This document shows, piece after piece, positions 30,877 through 54,000 of a stretch of DNA of 64,000 nucleotides. The stretch is taken from assembly GCA_963702845.1 (NCBI GenBank), contig OY969763.1, forward strand, positions 96,001-160,000. The letters run 5' to 3'. The notes under the pieces are model-generated. The model searched no databases. It saw only the letters and a list, made by a program, of their open reading frames with translations, and was not told where the DNA came from. Origin of the DNA: an uncultured Verrucomicrobiae bacterium (GTDB taxonomy: Bacteria > Verrucomicrobiota > Verrucomicrobiia > Limisphaerales > Palsa-1400). The translations under genes were made by a program, and so were the position numbers. Numbering within the stretch: the first letter of the stretch is position 1; each line of letters opens with the position of its first letter.

Positions 30877-31209
30877 ATGAAAGCAAATAACACTGAGAAA
30901 AATGGTTCTAAGCCCGCCGTCGCTGAGGCTATGGCGCGGCCATCCGGCTCGAAGCCGGATTGGTGGGTGGCAGTGCCTGAATCAGAAAAAATAGTTTTGC
31001 GGAATGCGATCGGTGCAATTCGGCTGCAGAAGAAAAGCCGGTCTCCTCAGATTGCCAGTGCGGCGCAGAAATGGGATGCGACCATTTCGTGTTTTATTCG
31101 AGCGCGGCTGATGAATCGCAAAGTGCGACTCTCAACTGGCAACGTGCGGTCTATTTCCCGCGCAACAAACGGGCGTAACCAACAAGGTGGCGCTGGAGCT
31201 CGGGGTTAA
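30877..31209 (+). CDS. Possible hypothetical protein
   Basis: ORF overlaps the 3' end of the repressor; weak. Confidence 0.3.
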   Translation: MKANNTEKNGSKPAVAEAMARPSGSKPDWWVAVPESEKIVLRNAIGAIRLQKKSRSPQIASAAQKWDATISCFIRARLMNRKVRLSTGNVRSISRATNGRNQQGGAGARG

Positions 31210-31603
31210 CCGGACACTGACTGCGTAACCATTCAATCGCGTCCTCAACTTCTTTTGTAAGATGAAATTTTTCGCTCCTGTTCGTCAGATCGATTTCGCC
31301 CTTCTCGGCCTTTCCGGTGGGTTTGATTGTGATTTCAATCAAAGCGGCGCCGGCGATGTCGGCGGCTTCTGCTGGATGCCGGGCATCGGTGCAACGTGCT
31401 GCGATGATTGCAGCCTGGGACTTGGGATCGGCTGCGAAGACTTTGAGTATCGCGACGAAATGTTGGTCACTGAAGTCGCGGGATTCGCCGGCGCACACAC
31501 GGCTGATGAAGCTACGGGACACGCCGGATTGGCGGGAAATTTCGGAATGGGTGATCCCACGTTCGTCGCAGATACGTTGCAGCGCGGTGCCGAGAAAGCT
31601 CAT
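31151..31603 (-). CDS. XRE-family HTH repressor
   Basis: ERGITHSEISRQSGVSRSFISR; divergent from early phage genes. Confidence 0.82.
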   Translation of the reverse strand: MSFLGTALQRICDERGITHSEISRQSGVSRSFISRVCAGESRDFSDQHFVAILKVFAADPKSQAAIIAARCTDARHPAEAADIAGAALIEITIKPTGKAEKGEIDLTNRSEKFHLTKEVEDAIEWLRSQCPVNPELQRHLVGYARLLRGK

Positions 31604-31906
31604 AAAATTTTTTACCTTTGCGTGCGCAGTTTATGCGCCTGCTACGCGATTGCAACCCGAGGTTATGCAACGGTTTGCGCGAAACGACCGCTGTTCCAGC
31701 GAAAAAAGCCGAAAAACAGCGTCAACAATTTTCTCACAAAAATTTGCTGCGCGAAAACAGCGCTAGTTGTCGCTTCATTACGGGAGGTGTCGCAAGTAGA
31801 CACCACACGGGTTCACACAAAAGAGGTCACGCAAAAAACCAGAGGTATAAACGTTTGCACGCGGCCACGGTGCTGCGCGTAACGCTTCGCAATAGAAAAC
31901 AAAGTT

Positions 31907-32167
31907 ATGGAAACAGTACAACAAACCATCGTCACCCTGAAAGAGGGTTACATCACCAAAGATGAAGTCGCGCGGCGTATGAAGAAATCCGAGCGCACTG
32001 TCGAGAGATGGCAGAAGCGCGGGATCATTCCGTTCGTGAAATGCGGCCATGCCGTGCTTTTCGACTGGGTGGATGTGCAACGACATCTGGAAGCGAATTT
32101 CCGCGTTTGCGCGACCGCACAGCTACCCGCTTCAGCCGTCGCACATCTCTCCGCTTCCAAGAACTGA
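31907..32167 (+). CDS. Excisionase/Cro-like HTH protein
   Basis: YITKDEVARRMKKSERTVERWQKRGIIPFVKCG. Confidence 0.85.
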   Translation: METVQQTIVTLKEGYITKDEVARRMKKSERTVERWQKRGIIPFVKCGHAVLFDWVDVQRHLEANFRVCATAQLPASAVAHLSASKN

Positions 32168-32315
32168 GCGTTAGCACGCGGCCACCTCAAATGAATTCCC
32201 GAAGAAAAGGAAAAGTCGGCGAGCGCGAGTTGGGCTTCCCAAGCCTGCCTCAAGTTAGGTGCCCCGAAAGAGACGGTCGCTTCGCGACACGAGATGCCTC
32301 GTTGGAGGCGAATCA

Positions 32316-32762
32316 ATGAATAGTCGAACAAAAGGCAAACGTGGTGAACGGGAATTCGCCTCTCTCCTGCGCGAGCATGGTTTTGACGCGCGACGCGGAC
32401 AGCAGTTCTGCGGCGGCGAAGATAGCCCCGACGTGGTCAGTGAAGCGCTCGCCTGGCTGCACTTCGAAATCAAGCGCGTGCAGAACCTGAATCTTACCGA
32501 TGCGTGCGTGCAAGCGATTGGCGATTGCGGGCAGACGGTGTCTGCACTCAAGGGTGGCGTTCCTAAGCCGTGGGTGGTGGCGCATCGGAGAAATCATGCG
32601 CCGTGGCTGATCACGATGAGCGCTGAAACTTTTTTCAAATTTCTGAGGGGCGCGTTGCCTCCAGATGTAACCGAACAAAACAACAATACTCCGATGCCAA
32701 TTGGCACAGAGCAAAACATAGAAAGCAAAACGTATGAGTCTAGTCCTACAATCAACAGTTAG
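32316..32762 (+). CDS. Holliday-junction-resolvase-like PD-(D/E)xK nuclease
   Basis: MNSRTKGKRGERE...SPDVV...FEIKR. Confidence 0.75.
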   Translation: MNSRTKGKRGEREFASLLREHGFDARRGQQFCGGEDSPDVVSEALAWLHFEIKRVQNLNLTDACVQAIGDCGQTVSALKGGVPKPWVVAHRRNHAPWLITMSAETFFKFLRGALPPDVTEQNNNTPMPIGTEQNIESKTYESSPTINS

Positions 32763-33378
32763 TTCCGATTTCAAACCGCATCCGGAAGGGATTCATCCCG
32801 CCGTTTGTGTCGATGTGATCGATCTCGGCATGGTCGAGTCCGAATACAAGGGTCAGGTGTCACTCAAGCGCAAGCTGCGCGTGGTGTTTGAATCCGAACA
32901 GGCGACTGCCGGTGGGGTTCGTTGCACGATCGGCAAGCGGTTCACTGCAAGTTTGCATCCGAAATCGCGCCTTGCGGAATTCCTCGGCAAGTGGCGCGGC
33001 CGTCCGGTTGTTCCTAGCGAAACGATTGACCTTGCAAAGTTGATCGGTGCGTCGTGCACGCTCGTTATCAGTCATCAAACGGATTTGAGTGGTCAGTTGT
33101 ACGCTGCTATCGATGCGGTTTCGAAGCCGACGAAGAAGGTCGCTCCTTCCGGCCAATACGATCCCGCTGCGGCGCGTCAGCGCATCGCGCAAGCGAAGCA
33201 GGCGAAGCAAGCGGGGCTTGCATCCACCTCGGCTTCGCCGGTTCGCGGAGTGACACCGGCAGCGGCGGCTCCGGCTCGTGCTATGACTCCGGTGCCGTCC
33301 GCGGCTGAGCCGTCCAAAAGCGCCGCGCCGACGTCGGCTCCGGCAGTTCCTGAGTACGATCCTGAAGTCGGATTCTGA
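32734..33378 (+). CDS. Phage SSB-like/replication protein
   Basis: PEGIHPAVCVDVIDLG...ASLHPKSRL...LIGASC; flexible linker and acidic-aromatic tail EYDPEVGF. Confidence 0.7.
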   Translation: MSLVLQSTVSSDFKPHPEGIHPAVCVDVIDLGMVESEYKGQVSLKRKLRVVFESEQATAGGVRCTIGKRFTASLHPKSRLAEFLGKWRGRPVVPSETIDLAKLIGASCTLVISHQTDLSGQLYAAIDAVSKPTKKVAPSGQYDPAAARQRIAQAKQAKQAGLASTSASPVRGVTPAAAAPARAMTPVPSAAEPSKSAAPTSAPAVPEYDPEVGF

Positions 33379-33418
33379 GTTGCGCGAAATAATCCCGTGA
33401 ACACATGACGCCAAGGTC

Positions 33419-33453
33419 ACGCGGGGCAGTGCAACAACTGCCCCGCGTTTTTT
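33419..33453 (+). terminator. Intrinsic terminator
   Basis: ACGCGGGGCAGT-loop-ACTGCCCCGCGT followed by a T run. Confidence 0.75.
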
Positions 33454-33466
33454 GAAAGGAAATTTT

Positions 33467-34300
33467 ATGACACTGATTGATAGACAACCGGCAAGCCATT
33501 GGTATTTGCGAGATGGCCGGCCATTTCATCAAATTGCAAAGAAGGACGGCAGCCTCAAGGCTGTCACGCTTGCAGACGCGCGCAAAGTTCTCGCACTGCC
33601 GAGCGTCACTAACATTTTAGGCGTGCTGGCTAAGCCTGGGCTCGATGCGTGGAAGATCGAGCAAGCAATTTTCGCGGCACTAACGTTGCCGCGCGAGGCG
33701 GATGAACCGCTGGATGCATTCGCGCGTCGTGTCGTTAAAGACATGAGCGAGCAAGTGAAGAAGGCTGCGGATTTCGGCACGGCAATTCACGCCGCATGCG
33801 AGGCCTACGCCATCAATAAGGAACTGCCGGGCACCCAAATGATTTTGGATTTCGTTCGCGAGTGGGTCCTTTGGTTCGACGAAAACGTGGAGCGCATCGA
33901 CGGCATCGAGCAAGTCGTTGTGCATCCTACGGCGCTCTATGCCGGCCGGGTCGATATGGTCGCGAAGTTGAAAGACATCGGTTGGTGCGTGGTGGATTTC
34001 AAAACGCAAAAGGTTAAGCGCAATGCCAAGGGTGAGCCGAAGGCTGCGTTTTATGAAACATGGCCGTTGCAGCTTGCCGCGTATCGGGAAGCGATTAACG
34101 CGTCGACGGGCAAAAACGTCGTCGGCCTAGTTTCGGTGGTGGTCGATAGCGTCGAGCCCGGGCCGGTGCATGTGAAGGTTTGGCCGCAGAATGTTAATTA
34201 CGCGGAGGTCTTCGCTGGGACGTATCTGGCTTGGAAATACATGAAGTGCTACTCGCCAGGTGAAGCGGCCCTGAACTCGCCGAATCCTGAACTGAATTAG
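33467..34300 (+). CDS. Phage PD-(D/E)xK exonuclease
   Basis: PSVTNIL, GTAIH, YAGRVD, VDFKT, QLAAY. Confidence 0.85.
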   Translation: MTLIDRQPASHWYLRDGRPFHQIAKKDGSLKAVTLADARKVLALPSVTNILGVLAKPGLDAWKIEQAIFAALTLPREADEPLDAFARRVVKDMSEQVKKAADFGTAIHAACEAYAINKELPGTQMILDFVREWVLWFDENVERIDGIEQVVVHPTALYAGRVDMVAKLKDIGWCVVDFKTQKVKRNAKGEPKAAFYETWPLQLAAYREAINASTGKNVVGLVSVVVDSVEPGPVHVKVWPQNVNYAEVFAGTYLAWKYMKCYSPGEAALNSPNPELN

Positions 34301-34310
34301 GGGGAGCACA

Positions 34311-34565
34311 ATGGAAGCGTTAGCACGCCGCCACCTTAGCACACTGCTACCTCTCCGCCCACCCGCGCACGACGTGGAACGGGTGCGGCGGCTCATCGGC
34401 AGCAATCCGGAAAGCAACGCCATGGTGTTGCGATTCGTCGCGCATCAATACGGCGTTAAGACTCTGGATGATTTGCCGACGAAGGTGGTTCGGGCAATCT
34501 GCAAGCGGCCCGCAGCTTTCGCCCGCGCTGTTAAGCAGCATTGTGAGACTCACCTTCTCGGTTGA
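34311..34565 (+). CDS. Hypothetical phage protein
   Basis: GGGGAG RBS, co-oriented with early operon. Confidence 0.55.
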   Translation: MEALARRHLSTLLPLRPPAHDVERVRRLIGSNPESNAMVLRFVAHQYGVKTLDDLPTKVVRAICKRPAAFARAVKQHCETHLLG

Positions 34566-37884: not shown

Positions 37885-38024
37885 AAAACCCAAAGGAAGT
37901 GCAAGGTGCAACATCCCTATAATAAGAATGCAGCATTAAGCAGGAAAGAAGGGACAACCCTCCTAGGAGTCGGGTTGCCCTTCTTCTGCCTGCAATGGGT
38001 TTGCACCTGTTTGAAAGTGATTTT

Positions 38025-38606
38025 ATGAGCAGACCATTCGAACAACTACCGAAAGAAAGCGCGAAAGCCTTCGCGGCGTTCAACTTGTATCTGAATCTCG
38101 GCGCGGAGCGTTCATTGCGGGAGGTAGGGGAAAAGTTAGGTAAGAGTGAGGGATTAATTGAACGCTGGTGTTCCAAATATGATTGGAAGACGCGCGTGCA
38201 GGCGTTCTCGGCGCACCTTGCACTGGTGGAGCGCGAAGCGATTGAGGCTTTGGCGCGAGAGCGTGCGATTGACTGGCATAAGTTGCACGAAGAGCAACGG
38301 ATCACTGAGTGGAAGATACGGTGTGAAGCCTTGGAGCTGGCGAAGGAGGTCATCGCTCGATGGCGAGAGAACACGAATAAAGCGGGGACGCTTGAAGGGA
38401 TCGCACGGCTTTTGGAGTTGGTCCACAAGTTCGGGCGGTCGGCAACGGGGATGCCTACGGAGATCAAGGAGGTTCGTGGGGAAGTGAATGCGACGCTGGA
38501 GGTGGAGTGGGAGATCGCGTTGAAAAAGGCGTTTCCAAAGGTGGCAGCGCCACCGGCCACTATTGTGGAGGCAGAAGTGATTGAACCGAAGGAGCTGAAG
38601 CCATGA
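38025..38606 (+). CDS. Terminase small subunit-like protein
   Basis: ESAKAFAAF..Y...RSL..V...IERW...DW..RV; ATGA-coupled to terL. Confidence 0.65.
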   Translation: MSRPFEQLPKESAKAFAAFNLYLNLGAERSLREVGEKLGKSEGLIERWCSKYDWKTRVQAFSAHLALVEREAIEALARERAIDWHKLHEEQRITEWKIRCEALELAKEVIARWRENTNKAGTLEGIARLLELVHKFGRSATGMPTEIKEVRGEVNATLEVEWEIALKKAFPKVAAPPATIVEAEVIEPKELKP

Positions 38607-40018
38607 TTGAGCAGCAAATGTTTGTAGATGAAGCGGTGCGCGCTGGTTGCGGCGAGGATCAGATTCGGAACTTTATCCGCGCGCGCGTGTTCTTGCAGCA
38701 GCGGCAACTGGTGGCGAGCGCGGCGGCGCGGCTCTGCGATAGCCCGGATGGGCCGACGTCGATCGGCTACGGCGGCGCGCGCGGTGGCGGCAAGTCGCAT
38801 TGGCTTTTGGCGCAGATGGGCGCGGACGATTGTCAGCGTGTGCCTGGGCTGAAATGTCTTTTGCTCCGCAAAGTTGGGAAGTCGAACACGGAACATTTCG
38901 AGGATCTGCGCCGAAAGCTGTTCATGTGTTTGCCTCATGAGTTTTCGGCCTATCGTGGGTTGTTGACGTTCACGAACGGGTCGCGGATTCATGCCGGGCA
39001 TTTCCAATGTGAGAAGGACATCGATAATTATCTAGGCATTGAATACGACGTGATCGGGATCGAGGAGGCAACGACGTTGTCGAAGCGGAAGCATGACGAT
39101 ATTTCGACGTGCTGCCGGTCATCGAAGATTTTGCCGGACGGCACGACGTGGCGTCCGCGGATTTATTCGACGACGAATCCGGGCGGGGTAGGGCACGCTT
39201 GGTATCGAGCGATGTTTATTGTGCCGTTCCAGGATGAGAAGGAGAGCGATACGCGATTTATTCCGGCGCGCGTTGAAGATAACAAGTTCAACAATCCGGA
39301 TTATCGCAAGAGGCTGGAGGGTTTGGCCGACGGTTGGCAAAAGCGCGCCTGGCTGCACGGTGATTGGGACATTGCGGCAGGGCAATTCTTCACGACGTTT
39401 CGACGCGATGTGCACGTCATCGAGGATTTTGATGACACGCGCGCAATGGAGTGGTTCGCCGCGCTCGACTACGGGTTCAATCATTACACGGTGGTGTTGC
39501 TCGGGTGCCGCGATGGCGATGGCAACGTTTTTATCGTGGATGAACATGCGGAGCGGATGTGGGTTCCGCAGCGGCACGCGCAGGCGATCCGCACGATGTT
39601 GGCGCGGCACAAAACAAATCAGGGTTGCACGTTGCACTTGCTGGATTTGAAACAGGTTGTTGCCGGCGCGGATGTGTTCAGTCGACAGAGCGACGGCACT
39701 ACGATCGCGGCGCAATATGAGCGGCTGGGGGTGAAGCTTTCGCAAGCGAACATGGACCGGGTAAATGGATGGGCGGAGGTGCTGCACCTGTTAGGTGACA
39801 CGGCGAATAATATTAAGCCGAAGTTGTTTATTCATCGGCGGTGTGCGCGGTTGGTCGAGTGTTTGCCGGCGTTGCAGCACGATCCGAAGCGTCCTGAGGA
39901 TGTTTACAAAGTTGACGCCGAGGATGGAATCGGCGGCGACGATGCGGCGGATGCTCTTCGGTATATGGTCGCGACGAAGTCGCGCGAGTGTTTTGTGCGG
40001 AAGTTGAGGGGACTCTAA
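38603..40018 (+). CDS. terL: Terminase large subunit
   Basis: YGGARGGGKS, GIEEAT, TTNPGG.GH, HGDWD, ALDYGF, DDAADALRY. Confidence 0.93.
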   Translation: MIEQQMFVDEAVRAGCGEDQIRNFIRARVFLQQRQLVASAAARLCDSPDGPTSIGYGGARGGGKSHWLLAQMGADDCQRVPGLKCLLLRKVGKSNTEHFEDLRRKLFMCLPHEFSAYRGLLTFTNGSRIHAGHFQCEKDIDNYLGIEYDVIGIEEATTLSKRKHDDISTCCRSSKILPDGTTWRPRIYSTTNPGGVGHAWYRAMFIVPFQDEKESDTRFIPARVEDNKFNNPDYRKRLEGLADGWQKRAWLHGDWDIAAGQFFTTFRRDVHVIEDFDDTRAMEWFAALDYGFNHYTVVLLGCRDGDGNVFIVDEHAERMWVPQRHAQAIRTMLARHKTNQGCTLHLLDLKQVVAGADVFSRQSDGTTIAAQYERLGVKLSQANMDRVNGWAEVLHLLGDTANNIKPKLFIHRRCARLVECLPALQHDPKRPEDVYKVDAEDGIGGDDAADALRYMVATKSRECFVRKLRGL

Positions 40019-40068
40019 GAAAGGCTGAAGGATGAAGGGCTTTGCCCCGCTTTTGGTCGAGCCCATTG

Positions 40069-40371
40069 TTAGGCACTACTGCCTCGGACTTTGAAGAAGC
40101 CCCACTTCATACCAAGGCCGATAGCAGCGACGAAGGAAAGTGCCGCGCAGGGAAAAATATTTTGGATCAACTGGAACGTGCGAAGTTCCTTGAGCGACGC
40201 ATACCGAACGGAGCCATGGCTTACTACCACTTTCTCGGTCAGGCCCAAAGTCTCGTCTGGAGCCTTCGGGAGATGAACGAAGTAATATTGGTCTATAAAC
40301 ACAGCTGCTCCCACGAAGATGAAAAAAAATCCAAGGAGAACCCCAAGCAATGTTTTGCGAAACCTATTCAT
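40069..40371 (-). CDS. Two-TM cargo protein ending in an attC-like R'' box
   Basis: Stop TAA lies inside GCCTAAC, followed by AATGGGCTCGACC on - strand. Confidence 0.7.
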   Translation of the reverse strand: MNRFRKTLLGVLLGFFFIFVGAAVFIDQYYFVHLPKAPDETLGLTEKVVVSHGSVRYASLKELRTFQLIQNIFPCAALSFVAAIGLGMKWGFFKVRGSSA

Positions 40372-40565
40372 GATTCATCACCACCTAGACAATTTATATC
40401 CGACAACTGTTCGCAGATTTTGAATCAGCCAACAAGGGTTTTATGGCGGCTTCTTTAAGAGAGGCCGGAGTCCAGAGGTTGCAAATCTCTGGCGCGGAGG
40501 TTTGGAGGCGGCGTGAGTCTCCAAAGCGAATGGCTCGCGCCTGGGCGGACGCGAGGCAAAACGGG

Positions 40566-40943
40566 TTATCGGGGACTGGCCGCGCAGGTTTGCGGCTTCG
40601 CGTCGCGATCGGCGGTGTAGATGAGAGGCTGGCCGCAGGCGTGGCAGGTTTTCCAATAGGTGCCGGCGTCGCGGTCTTTCTGACTTCGGCAATACCAGCG
40701 GATGCCGCATTGGGCGTGTTCGTCGGGCGTGCGGTATTTGTTCGCACAGGCGCGCTGAAAGCGGCGGTGATTCTTCGCGATTTCCTCCTCGGCGTTGCGC
40801 TTCTCGCGCTGGATTTTGGCGAGGATCTTCGCGGCTTGTTTGACTTCCCGTTCGTGTTGTTCGGCGGCGCGTTGGGCTTCGCACTTCGCGGTGTCGGCCG
40901 CAACGGCGGCGGCTTCGAACGGCATGAGAGATTGTTGGTTCAT
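40566..40943 (-). CDS. Hypothetical protein (coiled coil plus Cys motifs)
   Basis: ATGA-coupled to upstream ORF; CHACG motif. Confidence 0.6.
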   Translation of the reverse strand: MNQQSLMPFEAAAVAADTAKCEAQRAAEQHEREVKQAAKILAKIQREKRNAEEEIAKNHRRFQRACANKYRTPDEHAQCGIRWYCRSQKDRDAGTYWKTCHACGQPLIYTADRDAKPQTCAASPR

Positions 40944-43555: not shown

Positions 43556-43628
43556 GTGCCCCCTCCCCCGCTGCTAGACGTCGCCCGCTTTTAGCGGAAC
43601 TGCGACGTTACCAGCGGGGGAGGGGGCG
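43556..43628. repeat. GC-rich REP-like palindrome
   Basis: GCCCCCTCCCCCGCTG...ACGTCGC pairs with GCGACGT...CAGCGGGGGAGGGGGC. Confidence 0.7.
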
Positions 43629-43799
43629 CGGGTTGGTGGGGGGCCCCGCGACGAGGCGGGCAATGCGCGGGCGGCGCGAGGGGGAAATGGGCGGGTGCCG
43701 CCGGCGTGCGGCGGGGAAATCAGTAGGACGTAGCGAGAAGGGAAACAGGGCGAGCGGAGTTCCGTTCAACCCTCTGAGCCTGGCGAACAAATGTTGTCT

Positions 43800-44258: not shown

Positions 44259-45225
44259 AAGTACAACTTGGCGCGGCTGAAGGTAGCCAGCTGAGAAAGC
44301 GATGACAACGCCAACCTGCTAGCTTATGTGAATTGGCCAACTGAAATCGTGCGGAGCACTGCTGCCGAGTCTGCGAGGCGGCAAAGAGGGTGGTTGGAAT
44401 ACGGTCGCGCTGGGCGACTAACGCCGCCGCGAACGATACCGCCACGGCTGACGCGAACGGGGAAAATACCGGGACCAACCCATAACCACGATGAACACCC
44501 ACAGAGTACTGCGCCCACCACGGTAACCGCGGCACGCACCACTGAGGCGACCCGCACGACATCCAGAACTGAACTGGCTTATGAACACCATCATTATAAA
44601 ACCGCAACACCGAACCACGAAACCCGACTAGCGCCTGTTTTATTTTTTGTATTTTTTTCATCACATTGACTTTGAAAAAAATCAAAAAATAAAACTGGTG
44701 CGGTAGATCGCGGGAACCAACGTCGACAACCCTGCGCTCCAGTCGCGAGCATCAAAACAATTATATGGATCTCTGACTTCCAGACGGCGAAGGCTAAGCG
44801 GTGTGCAGACGGATCAGCAGCAGGTGTGACAGGGCACTGACTGACTAAATCAAAAATCAATTATCTCAGTGCCCTGGCGCATCTGCTGCCCGGCTGCACA
44901 GCGCGTGCCGGATGGGCGTTGGACGAGTTGAGGTGTTGAGAAGCGCAATTGATATTGTGCGTGCGAAGCGTGGGACGTTGGACAATCCGCGACGTTGGGT
45001 TGGTTTGGTGGCTAACTGATGCCGAAGGTTCGTAACAAATGAGCGACTGGCGGCTGCGCTGCTCTGAACGGTTCGTGTTATAGCAACGCAGCGCGGGTGC
45101 CAGGCGCGCAACTGACTTCTTTTATGTAATCGGCATCAGAATTATCGCACGCGTCGAGCAAGCGCGAAGCGGCTGCCGTTGGGAATTGTGCTGCAATCGG
45201 GGCACCTCCGTCGTCGTCGCCGTGG

Positions 45226-45714
45226 TCACGAGACGTCACCGCTTTTTCCACAAAACGGCAAATGCGTGAACTCGAGCACTTCCTGAGCGAACCTCTGCGC
45301 CAGCACCGCGTGCTCGGCGCCGTGGTTGTTCGTGGTAAAGGCGGCGAGTTGGACGAACTTGCCCGACCGGAGCAGCAAGCCGACGATACTATCGTGACCG
45401 TCGGATCCCATATACTGACAACGTATCGAAACGCCCTCGATGTCATTGGTCGCAATTTCCCTCCGTCTGAGAGTGACCAAGTCCCACGTTCGTGTGACAA
45501 CCAGTAGATTTCCCGCAGGCGTCAGGCCAATTTGCCGGAAGTTGCCGGCTAGAACGAAGGTAATCGCGCCGACGACGAAAGCAACTGCATCGGCGACAAG
45601 GCTGACGTGGCCGACGACAAAGACGCAAAAAAGGATGGCACTGCAGATAAAAACGCGCGGCACCCACCGGTCCCGCCGCACTTCCGATTTCAAAAACACG
45701 TCGTTCGTCGGCAT
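45226..45714 (-). CDS. Two-TM cargo protein with soluble C-terminal domain
   Basis: Two TMs then beta-rich region; preceded on - strand by an attC-like segment at 45756-45857. Confidence 0.55.
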   Translation of the reverse strand: MPTNDVFLKSEVRRDRWVPRVFICSAILFCVFVVGHVSLVADAVAFVVGAITFVLAGNFRQIGLTPAGNLLVVTRTWDLVTLRRREIATNDIEGVSIRCQYMGSDGHDSIVGLLLRSGKFVQLAAFTTNNHGAEHAVLAQRFAQEVLEFTHLPFCGKSGDVS

Positions 45715-45955
45715 GCCGCAGTCTAAAAGCAACAATAGAACAGCGCGTTTTATATCACCAACGGGCGCTGGTCGCAATCACCGAGAGCGGACGGCTGCGG
45801 CGTAGGAGCGTTGCGATAGCATCGCGACGGAGCCGCTGCCGGACGCGTGCGTTGGAACCACGCAGCACGGAAAATTGCGCAAAGGTCGCGTAGTTTCGCT
45901 TAGTGTCGCGTTGCTTCGGTAGACCGGAGATGCAGATGTTTGCGAAGATGTGTGC

Positions 45956-47557
45956 GTGCCAGTTAACACGACACATCCAGAATATGACGCCAGCTTAGCT
46001 TTATGGCTTCGCGCTCGCGATGTGCTGGCTGGCGAAGATTCTGTTAAAGCTGCGGGTGAACGTTATCTGCCGAAGCTGGAGTTGCAGACTGACGACGAGT
46101 TCAAAGCGTATCGCGCTCGTGCTTCGTTCTTCAATGCGACTGGCCGCACGCTGGATGGATACAGTGGGTTGATTTTTCGACGCGCGCCTTTTGTCAAAAT
46201 TCCTGAAGGTCCTTCCGGACGGGCAACATCCGGTCGGGCACCGTCCGCGCTCGCTTCTGCGCTCGGGCAGTTTGTCAACGATTGCGACATGCTCGGCACG
46301 TCATTAACCGGCTATGCAAAGGATTTGGTGACGGAGATCATCGGCGTTGGTCGTGCCGGCACGTTGGTTGATTGGGAAGGTGAATTTGAAAATCGCGCCT
46401 ACGTATCGCTGTATGAGGCGGAACAAATCATCAACTGGCGAGTGGAGCGCGTGAACGGGCGCAATGTGCCGACCTTGATCGTGCTGAAGGAAAGTTCGAG
46501 CACGAGTTCAACGGATGGTTTCACCAACGATGTGCTTCCGCAGATTCGGGTTTTGAAGTTGGTCCGCGGTGCGAGCAGCCCCGGCCAAGTGGGCGCAACG
46601 AAATTTTCGTTGGTATACCAAGTCGAAATCTGGCGGCAAGAATCTGCGAGCAAAAAAGGCGACAAAGCTGAATGGGTGTTGACGGAAACGCGCACGCCGT
46701 TGCGTTTCGGCAAGCCGTTGCCACTGATTCCGTTTGTGTTTCATGGGTCGCGGAATTCCCTGCCGTCCATCGATAAGTTGCCGCTGACGGATTTGATTGC
46801 GGTGAATCTGAATCACTATCGCCTCGATGCTGATTACAAGCACGGCATGCATTTCACTGCGCTTCCAACGGCGTGGCTGAGTGGCTTTAAGAAGGACGAG
46901 AAGTTTCAGATTGGCGCTCGTGCTGCGTGGGTTTCTGAAGCAGTTGGGGCGTCGGCTGGTTTTCTGGAATTTACCGGACAAGGGCTCACCACTTTTGAGC
47001 GCGCGATGGATCGTGACGAAAAGCAGATGGCTGTGCTTGGCTCGCGATTGTTGGAGTCGCAGAAGCGCGTGGGGGAAACGGCGCAAGCGATTGAGCTGCG
47101 GCAGAGCGGTGAAAATAGTGTGCTGGCGAATGTGGCCACGAGTTTGAGCGAGTCGCTGACGCAGGTTTTGCGCTGGGTTTATTGGTGGAATTCGACGGAG
47201 GAAACGCCTGAAGCGCTCACTGACAATGTTGTTGTCATTTCGCTTAACACGGATTTCACAACGGCTGGGATGGATAGCAATGAGCTGCGCGAGATCGTTG
47301 CTGCATGGCAAGCGGGTGCAATCAGCCAGGACACGATGCTGGAACTATTCCGGCGTGGAGAAATTTTGCCGGATGGGCGCTCGAATGAGGATGAGGTGGC
47401 TCTCATTAAGGCGGCGGAGTTTCGCGCGAAGGGTGGCAGCGCCACTGGCCACTCCAGTCCCAGCGACCCGTCGAAGAGTCCGGCAGATCAAACACAAACA
47501 TCGGTGCCAGCGCCTGCCGCTGCTGCTGCACCGACGAACCAACCGATGGCGGCATAA
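45956..47557 (+). CDS. Portal protein (DUF4055-like)
   Basis: THPEY...RDVLAG...YLPKL, RASFFNAT.RT, IINWR, IPFVF, KLPL.DL...NL.HY. Confidence 0.88.
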   Translation: MPVNTTHPEYDASLALWLRARDVLAGEDSVKAAGERYLPKLELQTDDEFKAYRARASFFNATGRTLDGYSGLIFRRAPFVKIPEGPSGRATSGRAPSALASALGQFVNDCDMLGTSLTGYAKDLVTEIIGVGRAGTLVDWEGEFENRAYVSLYEAEQIINWRVERVNGRNVPTLIVLKESSSTSSTDGFTNDVLPQIRVLKLVRGASSPGQVGATKFSLVYQVEIWRQESASKKGDKAEWVLTETRTPLRFGKPLPLIPFVFHGSRNSLPSIDKLPLTDLIAVNLNHYRLDADYKHGMHFTALPTAWLSGFKKDEKFQIGARAAWVSEAVGASAGFLEFTGQGLTTFERAMDRDEKQMAVLGSRLLESQKRVGETAQAIELRQSGENSVLANVATSLSESLTQVLRWVYWWNSTEETPEALTDNVVVISLNTDFTTAGMDSNELREIVAAWQAGAISQDTMLELFRRGEILPDGRSNEDEVALIKAAEFRAKGGSATGHSSPSDPSKSPADQTQTSVPAPAAAAAPTNQPMAA

Positions 47558-47569: not shown

Positions 47570-48367
47570 ATGGCACTGAAGTTTAAGTTTAATTCCAAAA
47601 CCGAAATTCCGGCTGAGTTGGCTGCACATTATGTCGAGCGCGATGGCGCTTGGGTTTTGGACGCTGACGGCGATGCCGACAAGGTGTTAGCACACGGCCA
47701 CGATGCCCTCAAAGCCCGGCTGGATGAGTTTCGCAGCACAAACGTCACGCTGCTCAAACAGTTGGATGATCAGAAGAAACGTTTCGAGGGAATTGATCCC
47801 GACGAATTTCGCAAGCTCGCGGATGAAAAACGTCAGCTCGAAGAATCGCAACAACTGAAGGCGGGCGAGTTGGAGAAGGTGGTTGAGAATCGTGTGAAGG
47901 GTTTAAAGGCGGATTGGGACAAGCAACTTACCACGCTGACGTCGGAGCGCGATTCGCTGAACGGCCGGCTCACCGCGATTCAGATCGATCAAGGTGTGGT
48001 CGGTGCTGCGACGAAGCGGGGGCTTCGTGCGACTGCACTTACGGATATTACCTCGCGTGCGCGAAATGTTTTCAAGTTGGTCAATGGCGCGCCGCGCGCG
48101 TTTGAAGCCGATGGCGAGACGGTGCGTTACGGCAAGGATGGCGTGACGCCAATGACTTTGGAGGAGTGGGTGGATACGCAAGTGTCCGAAGCTCCTCACT
48201 TGTTTGAATCTAACGCTGGTGGCGGTGCTGCCGGCAACGGCTCCGGTGGAGCTGGTAATCGGTCCGTGAAAAACCCGTACCGCAAGGAGACGTGGAATCT
48301 CACGGAGCAAATGCACTTACAAAAAACTGATCCGAATCTCGCAGCGCGCCTCAAAGCCGCTGCGTGA
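47570..48367 (+). CDS. Capsid scaffolding protein
   Basis: Coiled coil, PHLF..NAGGG, KNPY...WNLTEQ tail; between portal and capsid. Confidence 0.78.
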   Translation: MALKFKFNSKTEIPAELAAHYVERDGAWVLDADGDADKVLAHGHDALKARLDEFRSTNVTLLKQLDDQKKRFEGIDPDEFRKLADEKRQLEESQQLKAGELEKVVENRVKGLKADWDKQLTTLTSERDSLNGRLTAIQIDQGVVGAATKRGLRATALTDITSRARNVFKLVNGAPRAFEADGETVRYGKDGVTPMTLEEWVDTQVSEAPHLFESNAGGGAAGNGSGGAGNRSVKNPYRKETWNLTEQMHLQKTDPNLAARLKAAA

Positions 48368-48424: not shown

Positions 48425-49435
48425 ATGGCAAAGACAGCAGTGGCGGACATTATCATCCCCACAGAGTTTGAAAAATATGCGATCGAGCGCACCGCTGAAT
48501 TAGCGGCGTTCGGTGAGTGCGGCATTGTCGAGGCATCGCCTGAGTTCGATGCCATCGCTGCCGAAGGTGGACGCGAAGTTAAAATGCCGTTTTGGAAGGA
48601 CCTTTCCGCGACGCGTCAGCTTCTGAGCGATTCGGCAACGCTCGCCGTCAATAAAATCGGCACTGATCAGGATGTCGCGCGTATTCACAATGACGCGCAG
48701 GTCTGGTCTGTGAATCACCTGGCGAAAGTGATTTCAGGCGATGATCCGATGCAGGCGATTGTGGATCTGGTCGCGCAGTATTGGGCGCGCACGGATGAAG
48801 GTCTGGTCGTGTCGTGCCTCAAGGGTATGTTCGCGGCGGGTTCGATGGCGGGTAATCTTCTCGCGATTCATTCGGAGTCGGCGGCTGGCGCTGCTTCGTC
48901 GACGAAATTGACTGGTGCGACGTTCGTGGATGCTTGCGCGAAGTTGGGCGATCGTGCTGACCGGCTCACTGCCGTTGCGATGCACTCGGCGACTGAAGCC
49001 GCGTTGCGAAAGCTCGACCTGATCGACTTCATTCCTGACAGCCAGGGCAAGCCGCTCTTGCGCGTGTTCCAAGGTCGGCGCGTGGTTGTCGATGACAACT
49101 TGCCGACTCGGGCTGGCACGACTGATGGCACGGTCTACACGACGTATCTGTTCGGACAGGGTGCGTTTGCGAAAGGTTCGTCGAAACTCGATTCCACTCC
49201 GCTGCAAGGCGGTATGGGGACTGAAGGTGTCGAGATCGCACGCGTGCCCTTGGATAGCGATACGATTCTGATCAATCGTCGCCGCTATTTGCTGCATCCG
49301 CGGGGCGTGAAGTTTACCAGCGCTTCTGTTGCTGGCGATTCGCCCACGAATGCGGAATTGGAAACCGGCGCGAACTGGACCCGCGTTTGGGAAAACAAAA
49401 ACGTTCGCATCGTTGCGGTGACTCACAACAATTAA
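48425..49435 (+). CDS. Major capsid protein, SPP1-like HK97 fold
   Basis: T.VADIIIP..F..Y, MPFWKDL, SGDDPMQAI, AMHS, GRRVVVDD, LHPRG, PTNAEL..G.NW.RV.E.KN. Confidence 0.9.
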   Translation: MAKTAVADIIIPTEFEKYAIERTAELAAFGECGIVEASPEFDAIAAEGGREVKMPFWKDLSATRQLLSDSATLAVNKIGTDQDVARIHNDAQVWSVNHLAKVISGDDPMQAIVDLVAQYWARTDEGLVVSCLKGMFAAGSMAGNLLAIHSESAAGAASSTKLTGATFVDACAKLGDRADRLTAVAMHSATEAALRKLDLIDFIPDSQGKPLLRVFQGRRVVVDDNLPTRAGTTDGTVYTTYLFGQGAFAKGSSKLDSTPLQGGMGTEGVEIARVPLDSDTILINRRRYLLHPRGVKFTSASVAGDSPTNAELETGANWTRVWENKNVRIVAVTHNN

Positions 49436-49506: not shown

Positions 49507-49734
49507 ATGGGCAAGCTGATTCCCTGGGGTTCTGAAAAAATTCGGTCGGGTGAGGTCATTCAGATCCCGACGTTCACAAATGTTGCTGCTGCGAACGCTG
49601 CTGGCATTACTGCGGCAAAGTTTCCGCGACGCATTATTTATTTGAGCGCTGGCGGAACTGGTTCTGTGGCGTGCCTCGCAATTTCCGACGGCACGAATTG
49701 GAAACAAGTCGCCATTGGAGCGAACGCCATATGA
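49507..49734 (+). CDS. Small virion protein, head-decoration-like
   Basis: AAAGGA RBS; LAISDGTNWKQV motif; follows capsid gene. Confidence 0.65.
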   Translation: MGKLIPWGSEKIRSGEVIQIPTFTNVAAANAAGITAAKFPRRIIYLSAGGTGSVACLAISDGTNWKQVAIGANAI

Positions 49735-49916
49735 ACCCGGCTCGTGACCAATTGTATCCGATCATCCGGCGCGTGCGACGGCCGCTGATTCCCACTGATG
49801 CCGGCACGGCTGCTCCTGCGGTCGTGCCGGCGAAAACGCCTGAGCCTGTCTCGCCTACGCAACCGTCAAAACCTGAAACAACAACAGATGCCCCGCCGAC
49901 GACCTCAGATGACTGA
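49731..49916 (+). CDS. Small Pro/Thr-rich protein
   Basis: ATGA-coupled to previous gene. Confidence 0.55.
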   Translation: MNPARDQLYPIIRRVRRPLIPTDAGTAAPAVVPAKTPEPVSPTQPSKPETTTDAPPTTSDD

Positions 49917-50664
49917 TGCGCTTCCAGTTTCGGCAAATGCCGCCGCGTGGTTTGCGATGCAGCAGCAGCGCCGTCGACGTCGCAATTCTTTGGCAGCTGG
50001 CGGACCAGCGCTGGCGAATGTGCCGGGTGATTGCGTGTTGCGTTTGAAAGCGAGCACACTGGATTTGGGTGATGATGATTCGATTGCGTTCTGGCCTGAT
50101 CTGAGCGGCAACGCAAATGACGTTTCGCAAATCACGGTTTCGCAACAGCCGACATTTCAGACAGTGACGTTCGCCGGGAAGACGTTTGCTGTTGCGCGTT
50201 TCGATACTGTCGATGATGGGATGGAGACGCCGGTCGTGATTTCTGGTGCGTTTTCGATTTTCACGTTGTGGAGGTTGGCCGATGCCGATGTGTTTAGCGG
50301 CGCGATTCTGTCGTCCGCTTCAGCCGACTGGACCGTGGGCAATATCAATGGGCAGATGCTTTGTTACTTCGAAGGATGGAGCGCAGCCGCATCTGTCAAT
50401 GATTCGGATTTTTATCTGGTGGAGGCACGCGTGGTTCCTGGGAGCAGCCCGCTCAATATTTATTTGAACGGCGTGCAGGTTGGGATGAGTGGCGGCGGCT
50501 CGGCGGTGCCGTATCAGGTGATGTTGGGAGCTTCGGGCAGTAACGGTTATCCGGGCAATTGCGATTGTGCGGAGATTCTTATTTACGATCGTTTTCTCTC
50601 GGACGATGAGGCGGCCGGCGTGCGCGCCTATTTCCAGGAGGAATACAACTACTTGAAGTTATGA
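49909..50664 (+). CDS. LamG/ConA-like domain virion protein
   Basis: W.DLSGNAND..Q.....PT, FDTVDD, IYLNGVQ, AEILIYDR.LSD.E. Confidence 0.7.
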   Translation: MTDALPVSANAAAWFAMQQQRRRRRNSLAAGGPALANVPGDCVLRLKASTLDLGDDDSIAFWPDLSGNANDVSQITVSQQPTFQTVTFAGKTFAVARFDTVDDGMETPVVISGAFSIFTLWRLADADVFSGAILSSASADWTVGNINGQMLCYFEGWSAAASVNDSDFYLVEARVVPGSSPLNIYLNGVQVGMSGGGSAVPYQVMLGASGSNGYPGNCDCAEILIYDRFLSDDEAAGVRAYFQEEYNYLKL

Positions 50665-50978
50665 GCGTGCGCTATCTCGTCATTATTCCCGCTGCGGATC
50701 AGTCGCAAGCAAATGCTCTGTCGAAATCAGAATTTGATTCTGATGGCGGTGAGAAAACTTTTTCGATTGGGTTGTCAGAAACGGGCAAACCTCCGGCTAC
50801 GCATTATTGGTGCTCGGCTTTGTTCTTTCGCACCGGTCCTGAACGTTTGCTTGCAGCTAAAGCGATTTTTCCTGACGCCGTCGTTGTGGACTACGACGGC
50901 GCAACGGATCCCGGGTTTCCGCAACGCACGATTGCGGAGCTCGGACTGAAACAAGTTGTGACTCTGCCGGATAGATAA
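50661..50978 (+). CDS. Hypothetical phage protein
   Basis: ATGA-coupled; TFSIGLS.TG..PATHYWC. Confidence 0.7.
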   Translation: MSVRYLVIIPAADQSQANALSKSEFDSDGGEKTFSIGLSETGKPPATHYWCSALFFRTGPERLLAAKAIFPDAVVVDYDGATDPGFPQRTIAELGLKQVVTLPDR

Positions 50979-50979: not shown

Positions 50980-51564
50980 ATGGCGCTCGTTCTCGTCAAA
51001 GAAGATGGCACTGGATTGGCGAATGCGAATTCTTACGCGAGCGCTGCTGATGGTGACGCGTACCACGATGCGCATTTGTATGCAACGTCTTGGACGAGTG
51101 CGACGACGGCCAATAAGGAGAAGGCGCTGGTGTTCGCGACGCGGGTCATTGATTCGCAGTATCGGTTCCATGGAGTTCGCGCGGTCGCCGTGCAAGCGTT
51201 GCAGTGGCCGCGGTCCGATTGTCCCGATCCGGACGCTGCGCCGGATTCCAGTGGAATCGCGGTGTTTGCGAGCAATCAGGTTCCAACCGCTTTGATTAAC
51301 GCGACGTGCGAAATGGCGCGCGCCTTGTTGGCAGCAGATCGAACGGGTGCACCAGCTGGCGAGGGAATTGATACGACCCAGACGTCGGCCTCGAGCGCGA
51401 GTAAGGACGGAACTACGTCGAGCAGCGTCAGCAATAGTTCAATGATGCGATACAGCAAGGTGGATACGCGCCCGACCGTTTCGCAGGCGGCACAAGCGTT
51501 TCTGGCCAAGCTGGGCGATCTACCGGGTCGAGCGAGTGGCGCTGTTCAGCTGGTAAGAGTGTGA
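50980..51564 (+). CDS. Head-tail adaptor-like protein (DnaT_2-like family)
   Basis: VKEDGTG.ANANSY....D.Y, ALVFAT..ID, QALQWPR. Confidence 0.75.
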   Translation: MALVLVKEDGTGLANANSYASAADGDAYHDAHLYATSWTSATTANKEKALVFATRVIDSQYRFHGVRAVAVQALQWPRSDCPDPDAAPDSSGIAVFASNQVPTALINATCEMARALLAADRTGAPAGEGIDTTQTSASSASKDGTTSSSVSNSSMMRYSKVDTRPTVSQAAQAFLAKLGDLPGRASGAVQLVRV

Positions 51565-51574
51565 AAGGAGTTTT

Positions 51575-51895
51575 GTGACGAACATGAACACAACTGAGTT
51601 TTTGAAAGCGGTTGATCACGCGGCGGCGATGAATGACCGCTGGTTATTTTTGGCGGCGTTTTGCCTGCTGCTGTTGCTGTGCGGTGTGGTGATTTATTGG
51701 CTCGTGCGACAGTTGCAATCCCTGATCGCGGACCACAAGGAACTGCGCCACGAGCATCACGCGGCGCTGCAGGAAATCATCAACACACAAAATGAAACTT
51801 CGCTGAAGCTCGCGGTTTGTCTCGATCGGAACACGGCTGCGTTACAGGAGTGCAGTTTCGAACTTCGCAGATTTCAGGAGCAACGAGTTTTATGA
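51575..51895 (+). CDS. Single-TM coiled-coil protein, holin-like
   Basis: One TM then coiled coil, at end of structural operon. Confidence 0.55.
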   Translation: MTNMNTTEFLKAVDHAAAMNDRWLFLAAFCLLLLLCGVVIYWLVRQLQSLIADHKELRHEHHAALQEIINTQNETSLKLAVCLDRNTAALQECSFELRRFQEQRVL

Positions 51896-52608
51896 AAAAG
51901 ACCATTATCTTATTTGCCGCGCTTGCAATTGTGGGTTGCAGCACAATTAAACCACTTAAGCCGGGCGTCGCGCGCATTCAATCGAATGTCGGGACGAACG
52001 GCATTCGCGAATTCGTCGCCGATTTGAAGCAGCCCGAGAATCCCGCGCAAAGCGCGACTCAGAATTTTGAACGCACGACAGAAACGGAGTTGCCGATCCC
52101 GGCGCAGAGCAGGGTGCAGGAAGTATTCATCACGCCGGCAGCGCAGCCTGGTGAGCAACCGGTGAAGCAGGAAAAGACGATCGTGCTGTCTGCGCCGACC
52201 GTACAAAAAACGCGAATCGTTGAGAAAGCTGGCACGATGATTGGCGCTGCGCAAAAAGACACGGCGCGAGAATTCGGCGCGAAGCTTGCCAGTTTGAAAG
52301 GTGTCGTTTGGGTTGGGCTTGGTTTGTTTCTGTTCGGACTGGCATCTCTATTCTATCCACCTCTGCGCGCAATTATTGGCAGCGTGACAACTAGCTTGGC
52401 GATGCTTGCCGGCGGCGTGTCGCTAATGGTGTTGCCGTCGCTGATCGTCGGGAATGAATTGCTGATTTTAGCTGTCGTGGCGCTCGGTGTCGGTGCTTGG
52501 TTTTTTGCGCATCGCCACGGGCAATTGCGTGGAACAGTGGACGCCCAAAATAAAACGAGTATGGCCGGTGCGGCGGAAGAGACCGTTTCGCGGCTGATGG
52601 CTAAATGA
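51892..52608 (+). CDS. Lipoprotein with C-terminal TM helices
   Basis: MKKTIILFAALAIVGC lipobox; three C-terminal hydrophobic segments. Confidence 0.7.
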   Translation: MKKTIILFAALAIVGCSTIKPLKPGVARIQSNVGTNGIREFVADLKQPENPAQSATQNFERTTETELPIPAQSRVQEVFITPAAQPGEQPVKQEKTIVLSAPTVQKTRIVEKAGTMIGAAQKDTAREFGAKLASLKGVVWVGLGLFLFGLASLFYPPLRAIIGSVTTSLAMLAGGVSLMVLPSLIVGNELLILAVVALGVGAWFFAHRHGQLRGTVDAQNKTSMAGAAEETVSRLMAK

Positions 52609-52617
52609 AAGGTTTTT

Positions 52618-52965
52618 ATGCGAGATGAACAACATCGTTTCCTAATGTTAATGAGGCGACTTCCTGCGCGCCTCGACGTTGAGCAGGCCGGTTGGGTCCT
52701 TGGCTGTCAGAAGCATGACGTTCCGGCTCTCGTGGCCGCGCGTCTGTTGAAACCGCTGGGCAACCCTCCACCCAATGGGATCAAGTTCTTTGCGACCATG
52801 GATATTCTGGAGTTGATGGAAGATAAGGCCTGGCTCGCGAAGATGACGAACACGATCACGCAACATTGGTTTAGAAAAAATGCGCAGAGAAAAACCGGTG
52901 TCGTGAGCGCGCGTCGAAACGGCGCTGCTGGTTTGGACAGCATGGCGCCGGTTTCGAATAACTGA
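52618..52965 (+). CDS. Putative DNA-binding/excisionase-like protein
   Basis: LPARLDVEQAGWVLG...LVAARLLKP, HTH-like; converges on integrase. Confidence 0.55.
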   Translation: MRDEQHRFLMLMRRLPARLDVEQAGWVLGCQKHDVPALVAARLLKPLGNPPPNGIKFFATMDILELMEDKAWLAKMTNTITQHWFRKNAQRKTGVVSARRNGAAGLDSMAPVSNN

Positions 52966-52971
52966 CCGCGT

Positions 52972-54000
52972 TTACTGGTTTACCGCCATTGGGAGTGGAA
53001 CGATTTTCGACTCGTATTCTTCCAGGGATGGAACGATGACCTTTGCCTTCTTAGAGTAAGCGCGCGCAAACGCCTTTGAATTATGTCCGAGGGCCTGCTG
53101 TGCGTAGCGCTCGGGCATTCCGACAACCTTGGCACGTTCCGCCCATGCATAGCGGTAGCTGTGCAACGAAATGCCGCTGCCTTTTAGGGCGACCGTTTTG
53201 AGCCGCTTGATAAACATTTTCGCACGATGGTTCTCTTTGATGCGCGCGAGTCCCGGGAATAAATTGCCGACCTGCGGAAGCGAACGCAGAATGGCCGCTG
53301 CCTCTGGCCCGAAGGTGATTACGACAGGAACTCCCGTTTTGTTGCGTGAAAAAGAGATGGTGCGGTCCTGCCAATCAATGTCCTCGGCTTTCAGTTCGGC
53401 GATATCGGTTTGTGCGCCGCCCAAGTGCCACAACATTTGGTAATAGGCTTTGATCTCGGGGTTGAACTCGCGATTCAAAATTTGTGTGTGTTCGGCGAAC
53501 GTGATGGCACGACGTTCTTTGTGTTTAACGGCCGGCCATTGCAGCTTCGGAAGCACGGGCCAAGGTAGCCAGTGCATGCCGACGGCGAAATTGTGGAGCC
53601 GGCGGAGAAACATATTTGTCGAGGTACCGCCATTGCGGAGCACTTCAAAAAAATGTTCGCCGGTAGTTTCCATCAACTTGCGACTGCGAATCGTGTCGAA
53701 GGCTTTGTCGAGAATCGCGTGCTTCCATCGCTCCTGGGTTGGGCCGGTCTTGAGCGGCGTCATTTGATCCATCACGTGCTGCCATGTGCGCGCCGAGAGT
53801 GCGGAGTCGCTGTGCTTCAAATAAACCTGCGCGATCTGCAGGTTCATCGAGGCGTTGCGGACGGCCTCGTTTTTGATGTCGGTCAGCCGTTGGGCTTCGT
53901 CTGCGTTGTTGGTTTTGAGGCTCTCGCGTTTCTTGGTTTGAGTGTCGAAGCAATAGTAAGCGTCCCGCTTTCCCCGGTAGATTAATCGATAGCGCTTCAT
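52972..54000 (-). CDS. Tyrosine recombinase/integrase, atypical
   Basis: LHSYRY, LGHNSK...Y; adjacent to tRNA att site. Confidence 0.9.
   Translation of the reverse strand: MKRYRLIYRGKRDAYYCFDTQTKKRESLKTNNADEAQRLTDIKNEAVRNASMNLQIAQVYLKHSDSALSARTWQHVMDQMTPLKTGPTQERWKHAILDKAFDTIRSRKLMETTGEHFFEVLRNGGTSTNMFLRRLHNFAVGMHWLPWPVLPKLQWPAVKHKERRAITFAEHTQILNREFNPEIKAYYQMLWHLGGAQTDIAELKAEDIDWQDRTISFSRNKTGVPVVITFGPEAAAILRSLPQVGNLFPGLARIKENHRAKMFIKRLKTVALKGSGISLHSYRYAWAERAKVVGMPERYAQQALGHNSKAFARAYSKKAKVIVPSLEEYESKIVPLPMAVNQ

Follow-up and report, generated by a model that had tools for sequence, protein, structure and literature searches.

A virus-sized, head-only genomic island from a widespread family in Verrucomicrobiota

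We describe a 48.6-kb integrated element in a 64,000-nucleotide stretch of DNA (the window; positions 96,001 to 160,000 of contig OY969763.1, assembly GCA_963702845.1) from an uncultured Verrucomicrobiae bacterium of the order Limisphaerales, whose genome is a single contig of 6.03 Mb and 89.8% complete. Judged by its genes, the element is an intact member of a widespread Verrucomicrobiota family of virus-sized islands that encode a phage head and no recognisable tail. A preliminary description of the window had proposed an independent, SPP1-type, capsid-forming element without a tail, and this stands: the capsid matches the SPP1 coat protein with an expectation value (E) of about 1e-97, and the relatives are tail-less at the same place. 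The repressor, replication, terS/terL, portal, scaffold, capsid, adaptor and integrase genes, which it had called intact, are all open frames with family matches (Table 1), and to them we add a 61-residue open reading frame (ORF) at 49731-49916 and the lack of a head-closure gene. No published description of the family was found in the full-text literature, in a search whose coverage leaves out most subscription journals and bioRxiv supplements, nor is it described in the portions available of a haloarchaeal satellite preprint and of PMC9618062 (elements without an encoded capsid).

Boundaries of the element

The 18-nt core of the attachment site (att) has exactly two matches in the window, at 5528 and 54163, where 0.03 are expected, and arm-type repeats sit just inside both ends. 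These copies delimit a 48.6-kb unit that holds the head-only module. The extent first proposed, 31151..54000, was too small, since the core from repressor to integrase measures 23 kb alone, against 48.6 kb between the att copies. Measured between repeats anchored in tRNAs, three relatives come to 39.0, 39.1 and 49.3 kb, while another measures 48.9 kb between 25-nt repeats with no tRNA; two more contigs in this survey were too short for bounding. The bounded relatives repeat one gene order (integrase, defence-type cargo, replication genes, then packaging and head genes), and complete family members are integrated at different tRNAs, namely Thr, Leu and Pro. The att copies, and the matching layout of the relatives, lead us to infer that the cargo is mobile together with the head module.

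A third att copy lies about 10 kb further left and points to a separate island (contig positions 91605-101548, left of the window start and overlapping it) stacked at the same tRNA site.

Absence of a tail

Pfam, PHROG and PADLOC scans of the att-bounded unit gave no tail or endolysin family match in any scanned frame, in agreement with the earlier statement that tail tube, tape measure, baseplate and endolysin are lacking, and no tape measure, ejection or wall-degrading protein was recognised in the element. Beyond the adaptor the genes are tightly packed: the adaptor stop at 51564 is followed by a start at 51575, the two membrane-protein genes overlap by 4 nt, and the stop at 52608 is followed by a start at 52618, with gaps of at most 10 nt up to the integrase. 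Such packing leaves neither space nor scar for a tail operon, and the earlier observation that there is no deletion scar is thus borne out. The tight coupling described for the module as a whole holds from the adaptor up to the integrase, but not between terL and portal, which lie 5.9 kb apart. The neck, terminator, tube, tape measure and tail tip of a temperate siphophage were not found, nor, at profile level, were the nozzle and ejection proteins of a podovirus after the adaptor, which is followed by two membrane proteins and a small ORF.

Head modules number five in this genome: three extend to the lipoprotein gene, two end at the adaptor, and tail genes lie downstream of none. Genome searches for tube (phrog_290), tape measure (PF10145), baseplate J, sheath and tail tip were negative while their controls matched; searches with phrog_161 and phrog_179, for which no control matched, are not counted as evidence.

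A capsid alignment search returned 143 relatives on genome contigs, most with Verrucomicrobiota titles, and the best 80 were kept as genome loci. For four neck and tail proteins (Ne1, Tc1, tube and chaperone), profiles derived from the nearest tailed phages match 8, 7, 10 and 5 of 50 viral loci, respectively, but none of the 80 genome loci and nothing in this genome. The adaptor is present in 56 of the 80; 40 of these 56 have at least 3 kb beyond it, and in 18 an integrase follows at 1.4-4.4 kb. At E 1e-5, none of the PHROGs for tail or lysis was matched by 107 ORFs from the four bounded relatives and the window cargo, a set that includes 90 of the relatives' 117 listed ORFs and leaves out most core genes. 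Because the tail-less junction recurs across divergent genomes, the absence of a tail is a conserved trait of the family and not a local deletion; the preliminary description had named a tail operon at this position in relatives as the sign of simple deletion, and the relatives of the clade have none there. Among 401 genomes of the order, mostly drafts in which an absence means "not found", the capsid protein occurs in 48, one of which is a distant, tailed prophage.

Some further loci vary this plan. Near 2.815 Mb and 6.003 Mb of the same genome (L011 and L012) there are terS-terL pairs with no portal or capsid nearby. Three loci (L130, L139 and L141) have two head-only elements head to head around shared integrase genes. 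Another record (L153:1466-10108) shares the backbone of membrane pair, small ORF and integrase, with integrases at both ends, and carries another head module, with an HK97-type portal, an S78 protease and a capsid after a DUF4055 portal; no tail tube was found in its 36.6 kb. Here the tail-less chassis is the same, and the head module it bears is a second kind, unrelated to the first.

Origin and selection

The nearest tailed contigs (L014, L015, L024 and L026), with capsids 50-67% identical, carry Ad1, Hc1 and Ne1, and the three that are long enough also Tc1, tube and chaperone. In a quick capsid tree, which gave long-branch warnings, the tail-less loci fall inside the diversity of these tailed contigs. 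The tree is used for kinship only; the presence of the closure gene changes five times on it, maybe through module swapping. By this kinship the family is descended from an SPP1-type siphophage. Between paralogues, the ratio of nonsynonymous to synonymous substitution rates (dN/dS) is 0.02-0.31 at synonymous rates (dS) of 0.16-1.8 for every head-module gene where it was computable, values which indicate that the compared head modules are under purifying selection.

Adaptor and closure protein

The profile of the closure gene, Hc1, matches 13 of the 80 genome loci and nothing in this genome. From these comparisons, most members have lost the head-closure protein while the hairpin of the adaptor was remodelled. 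The window adaptor is modelled with a predicted local distance difference test (pLDDT) score of 85 and hairpin strands 130-140 and 149-158 (10-11 residues each); its Ser/Thr-rich hairpin of 30 residues is one of ten such extensions, and closure-bearing members have 14-15 residues. A PDB sequence search gave nothing significant and Foldseek none at E 0.001, so the adaptor is tied to no solved structure; its non-significant fold neighbours (E 2.9 or more) include T7 gp11, KP32 tubular protein A and neck proteins of siphophages and myophages.

Of the 13 closure-bearing loci, 11 encode a closure protein that ends in a C-terminal tail with two acidic-Gly-Asp/Val-Leu repeats that is absent from tailed phages, and a protein with an Mtd_N domain is encoded next to the closure gene in exactly those 11, and not in the 2 repeat-less or the 4 tailed-phage cases. 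A predicted complex of the repeat tail and an Mtd trimer, taken from the relative L078 and not from the window copy, scored 0.78 against 0.00 for the best control; successive repeats lie on three Mtd protomers, the runs agree on at least 96% of contacts, and the partner has a pLDDT of at least 76. Of 157 solved pairs, 116 attain the mark used, and of 215 mismatched ones, 2; for the present case these counts are a rough guide only. Resemblance to fibre docks or complexes already solved may account for the pass. Closure-bearing members are thus predicted to have gained a closure-protein tail that docks an Mtd-type fibre; a literature search for the docking motif found nothing relevant. The family keeps a graded series, from a full neck, through adaptor with closure and fibre, to adaptor only, which makes the minimal needs of a head directly addressable.

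How the element may spread

The explanation we favour, tentatively, is a helper-dependent element that would make and fill its own head and take closure and tail from an infecting long-tailed phage. We favour it because nothing recognisable is encoded for envelope crossing or wall lysis. In the available part of PMC13669383, prokaryotic Duplodnaviria are said to need tails to deliver their DNA; long-tailed prophages occur in the order (the tape-measure family PF10145 is found in 46 of the 401 genomes, 25 over the cut-off), and phage-inducible chromosomal islands that form capsids (cf-PICIs) provide a precedent. Release of the repressor would be followed by excision at tRNA-Thr, replication by the element's own genes, headful packaging that fills an SPP1-like head of full size (units of 39-49 kb, with no reduction in size) and placement of an adaptor ring on the portal, and the particle would bear the element's own adhesins (LamG/fn3/Mtd). 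Two steps are the least certain: closure and tail would come from a non-resident long-tailed phage, and release would depend on the endolysin of the helper, with assistance from the membrane pair of the element. The room freed by the tail operon holds defence cargo, which would pay for the element's keep in its host. The proposal rests on gene content, boundaries, conservation, selection and kinship with tailed phages; particle, excision and transfer are predictions from genes alone. If it is correct, an SPP1-type phage gave rise to tail piracy anew, at the full size of a phage and one step past the cf-PICIs (with closure dropped), and the family would be a common carrier of defence genes in Verrucomicrobiota, in 48 of 401 genomes with up to five copies each, that would be overlooked by satellite finders and labelled an incomplete provirus by prophage tools.

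Several observations weigh against a helper. Profile searches found no resident helper tail in this genome, tape-measure genes are barely enriched in carriers (8/48 versus 38/353), and the sister-type tail tube occurs in only 2 of the 401 genomes. There is probably no capsid size reduction, the four IMG/VR records checked are proviruses, with no virion-derived complete genome seen, and the predicted fibre dock on the closure protein is what an autonomous particle would need. Hairpins with at least three V/I/L/M/F residues occur in 9 of 9 tailed, 12 of 13 closure-bearing and 2 of 43 closure-less adaptors, after seven rows with less than 700 nt beyond the adaptor were dropped; the window adaptor is one of those 2. 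In SPP1, according to the accessible text of PMC9701221, the hairpins form a 24-strand barrel whose rim binds gp16 through polar contacts, and gp16 is needed for DNA retention, so that a closure-less head would need an outside or a new plug, a point in favour of a helper. The remodelled hairpin would correspond, by role only, to the part that contacts the closure protein in SPP1. In a quick adaptor tree built without the hairpin (support 92, unstarred; nine rows left out), closure-less members form approximately one derived group, and the association of hairpin with closure therefore counts as one coupled event and not as a statistic, its Fisher and Mann-Whitney P values being disregarded; given one event and polar SPP1 contacts, loss of closure binding by the remodelled hairpin is no more than a possibility. 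Tail borrowing of the cf-PICI kind, which the preliminary description had suggested, is not established, given the missing closure gene, the phage size and the failure to find a resident helper tail.

A possible but more doubtful alternative is that the HK97-fold particle works without any tail. The remodelled adaptor barrel, or the fibre-bearing closure ring of the older lineage, would seal the portal, LamG, fn3 or Mtd domains would bind the host, and the route of DNA entry is left unspecified. The neck appears to have been reduced stepwise, with tailed phages outside, closure-bearing members next and closure-less members derived; every one of the 11 repeat-bearing closure proteins is followed by Mtd_N, with the dock predicted as above; and the units are phage-sized, have their own membrane pair and meet few resident helpers. 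The earlier suggestion of a tail-less particle with its own attachment proteins gains from the fibre dock predicted in relatives, while LamG itself, on which it was based, is one swappable domain. On the other side, neither an endolysin nor any candidate for passage through a diderm envelope, be it a tape measure, an ejection protein or a wall hydrolase, was recognised; the predicted complex comes from a relative and may owe its score to likeness to solved docks; collar fibres are compatible with a borrowed tail; and the IMG/VR records speak against this alternative too. A tail-independent particle would break the rule that bacterial HK97-fold viruses need a tail. It is possible, with the same degree of doubt, that siphophage descendants without any tail, with swappable adhesins and full-size sealed heads, make up the first tail-independent, portal-packaging Duplodnaviria of bacteria, in about one eighth of the order's genomes.

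It is improbable that the heads are no infectious route at all and are retained for the sake of host or island, as tail-soaking decoys, as DNA containers (in vesicles or through lysis) or as a half-domesticated packaging unit, the island moving otherwise. Four copies, of which two stop at the lipoprotein gene and two at the adaptor, have no adjoining family integrase, and the two of them tested (B and C) have low dN/dS; the defence cargo is heavy, and the genome has further portal-less terminase pairs. Low dN/dS may, however, predate truncation, members that are complete retain, at different tRNAs, their att sites, integrase, repressor and replication genes, and the adhesin slots are swapped as host-binding parts would be.

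Very unlikely is a podovirus-like phage in which the small ORFs of 49507-52608 form an unrecognised short tail, for which the non-significant fold neighbours speak (T7 gp11 and KP32 tubular protein A for the adaptor, fibre modules for the 75-residue protein). The adaptor is of the Ad1 type, after which the nearest phages have a long-tail operon, no conserved ORF has the size of a nozzle, and the putative nozzle of a podo-like contig matched nothing in the genome, in a search without a positive control. The variable slot lies upstream of the adaptor, and the tailed sister phage L015 has similar small genes between capsid and adaptor plus a full tail operon; we infer that these ORFs encode head-attached parts and not a short tail, so that the podovirus tail parts which the preliminary description had raised as a possible refutation find no support. 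Hardly credible is the decay of a prophage through simple deletion of its tail: descent from tailed siphophages and the truncation of some copies fit it, but the same tail-less junction occurs across divergent genomes, the reading frames are unbroken, dN/dS lies at 0.02-0.31, and in the neck there are gains besides losses.

Other features of the element

Table 1. Features of the att-bounded unit in window coordinates.
Feature	Coordinates	Strand	Basis and remarks
att copy, left boundary	5528..5548	-	21-nt exact copy of 3' end of tRNA-Thr
Second tyrosine integrase, left end of unit	5794..7065	-	phrog_1 E 2e-25; 50% identical to 52972 integrase
Cargo block: RmuC-like, HNH, DndA, DndD/PbeC, DndC, WYL regulator, histidine-kinase-type ATPase, response-regulator cyclase, unknowns	7094..30740		PADLOC, Pfam
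Repressor	31151..31603	-	HTH_31/HTH_3, phrog_6223
Excisionase/Cro-like HTH	31907..32167	+	HTH_17, phrog_66
Holliday-junction resolvase (RusA/Hjc), phrog_862 protein, PD-(D/E)XK exonuclease, small ORF	32316..34565	+	phrog_244, phrog_862, phrog_298
Primase-like ORF	35035-36099	+	No family match; 68% identical full-length to a relative's ORF; putative function from position
AAA_25 helicase	36859-37884	+	PF13481, phrog_2597
Terminase small and large subunits	37995..40018	+	phrog_6299 (terS), phrog_979 (terL)
Variable cargo gap	40019..45949		Small ORFs, mostly minus-strand; scanned ORFs without family match except two weak ones
Structured non-coding element	41896..42300	+	z -6.9 (minus strand -3.9); 0/100 shuffles equally stable
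Portal	45950..47557	+	phrog_145 E 8e-121, DUF4055
Scaffold	47570..48367	+	phrog_206
Major capsid protein, SPP1 gp13-like	48425..49435	+	phrog_247; PDB 4an5 and 6r3a, E about 1e-97
75-residue conserved protein	49507..49734	+	35/94 clustered loci; model pLDDT 75, small beta domain
61-residue ORF, conserved basic N-terminal motif and low-complexity tail	49731..49916	+	Motif in 48/130 loci scanned
Variable-slot protein, Trp/Arg-rich N-terminal segment and LamG-like domain	49909..50664	+	PF13385 weak (E 0.0017), phrog_10356 virion structural E 5e-8
105-residue protein accompanying this LamG type	50661..50978	+	dN/dS 0.02-0.04; 3/94 loci only
Head-tail adaptor Ad1, extended Ser/Thr-rich beta-hairpin	50980..51564	+	phrog_477 E 2e-33
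One-transmembrane coiled-coil protein, two invariant Cys; holin-like or i-spanin-like	51575..51895	+	Weak: phrog_1625 in 5/19 members, Rz-like phrog_2466 in 4/19
Lipoprotein with C-terminal membrane segments	51892..52608	+	Invariant Gly-Cys lipobox
Small conserved protein ahead of integrase	52618..52965	+	Same position in 22/94 loci; no family match
Tyrosine integrase, convergent	52972..54000	-	PF00589, phrog_1
tRNA-Thr(CGT), right att site	54163..54238	-

The gene at 49507-49734, which the preliminary description called a decoration gene, has the position for it, and head decoration or spike base is its likely role; its product has no family match, a PDB sequence search with an alignment gave nothing significant and Foldseek none at E 0.001, with non-significant resemblance to fibre modules at E 0.019 or more. 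A motif similar to that of the 61-residue ORF occurs in the tailed sister L015. The LamG assignment holds as a weak match, the domain being one of several exchanged in this slot: relatives keep the N-terminal segment and replace the C-terminal domain (LamG, fn3, LamG with phosphoesterase, others), and by sequence the protein is likely a virion adhesin. In L126:11510-13654 and L132:5932-7899 the slot holds LamG fused to a calcineurin-like phosphoesterase. An Atlas search with the 105-residue protein gave nothing at 0.9, all matches lying below, and as a general portal plug it was rejected, since only 3 of 94 loci carry the gene.

The lipoprotein is likely an accessory of lysis or release. Its homologues lie directly after the capsid gene in unrelated Verrucomicrobia-type, large podo-like contigs (L155-L163), several with a small membrane gene ahead of it and no endolysin among the nearby ORFs listed; the membrane pair would thus be a module in general use among these phages, with lysis as its likely purpose. 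The pair is missing from one sub-clade of the family, and an Atlas search with the lipoprotein returned unnamed viral clusters only. The small protein ahead of the integrase is possibly a recombination directionality factor.

Between terL and portal lie 5.9 kb of small cargo genes and the structured element. Each of the genome's five head modules has a copy of this element; across the five, the long-range stems are invariant and 25 of 135 predicted pairs show two-sided changes, and the element may have a packaging or replication role. A sequence of 50-120 nt at 40384-40445 recurs at about 20 other genome sites and is possibly a cassette-associated repeat. Promoter and terminator scans stayed at chance level, a repeat search showed no conspicuous origin-like repeats, and an Rfam scan of 28000-56000 gave the tRNA, one chance match and nothing else. 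A look-up of sequencing runs for 45900-55600 listed none.

The cargo block has a G+C content of mostly 0.50-0.52 (range 0.48-0.54). Its Dnd phosphorothioation-like cluster at 16767-27247 comprises DndA, DndC, DndD/PbeC, HNH (at 16767) and a DpdB-like gene, and adjoins the WYL regulator. Directly left of the repressor, at 28795-30740, a histidine-kinase-type ATPase is followed by a response-regulator-fused cyclase with PycC similarity (E 2e-23).

Comparison with known systems

The closest parallel in gene content is with the cf-PICIs (EcCIEDL933, KpCIDSM30104 and EcCIGN02175), which, in the parts available of PMC10085698 and bioRxiv 10.1101/2025.02.11.637232, are chromosomal, with integrase, own primase/replication genes, terS, terL, portal, capsid and adaptor, no tail genes and defence cargo, and in which connector/closure and adaptor set tail specificity. 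The element likewise has an integrase, a regulator and a primase/replication module, its own terS, terL, portal, capsid and adaptor (phrog_477), defence cargo and no tail genes found. It differs from what these sources describe in that the connector/closure gene is missing from the window copy and most relatives; the head module has a scaffold and no prohead protease or HNH match, HNH occurring only in the cargo at 16767; the size is 48.6 kb (39-49 kb in relatives) versus about 10-18 kb (median 14); and the capsid is SPP1 gp13-like by sequence and of scaffold type, versus an HK97-like T=4 head. The cfPICI model forbids holins, and the element, which has no endolysin match, carries a holin/spanin-like pair with weak BhlA-type and Rz-like matches. 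The hosts are Verrucomicrobiota, and tail use is putative. With its closure gene absent, more than three times the size, a lysis-like membrane pair and an apparently separate origin, the element is not a cf-PICI member.

With the SPP1-type siphophages represented by the four tailed contigs, the element shares the capsid (SPP1 gp13 being the nearest solved structure), scaffold, Ad1 and small head-slot genes; its family differs in having lost neck and tail genes, remodelled the adaptor hairpin and placed cargo in the freed space.

Gene transfer agents have tails. They package host DNA fragments, whereas the element has its own integrase, att sites and replication genes and no fixed locus; the likeness lies in chromosomal HK97-fold head genes under purifying selection, as described for RcGTA in the available part of PMC13669383. 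The same part of that source describes portal-less, non-tailed HK97-fold mini-genomes of less than 12 kb, without portal and terminase and with a delivery route given as unknown. They resemble the element in having an HK97-fold capsid without tail genes, and differ from it in that the element has a full packaging motor and an adaptor.

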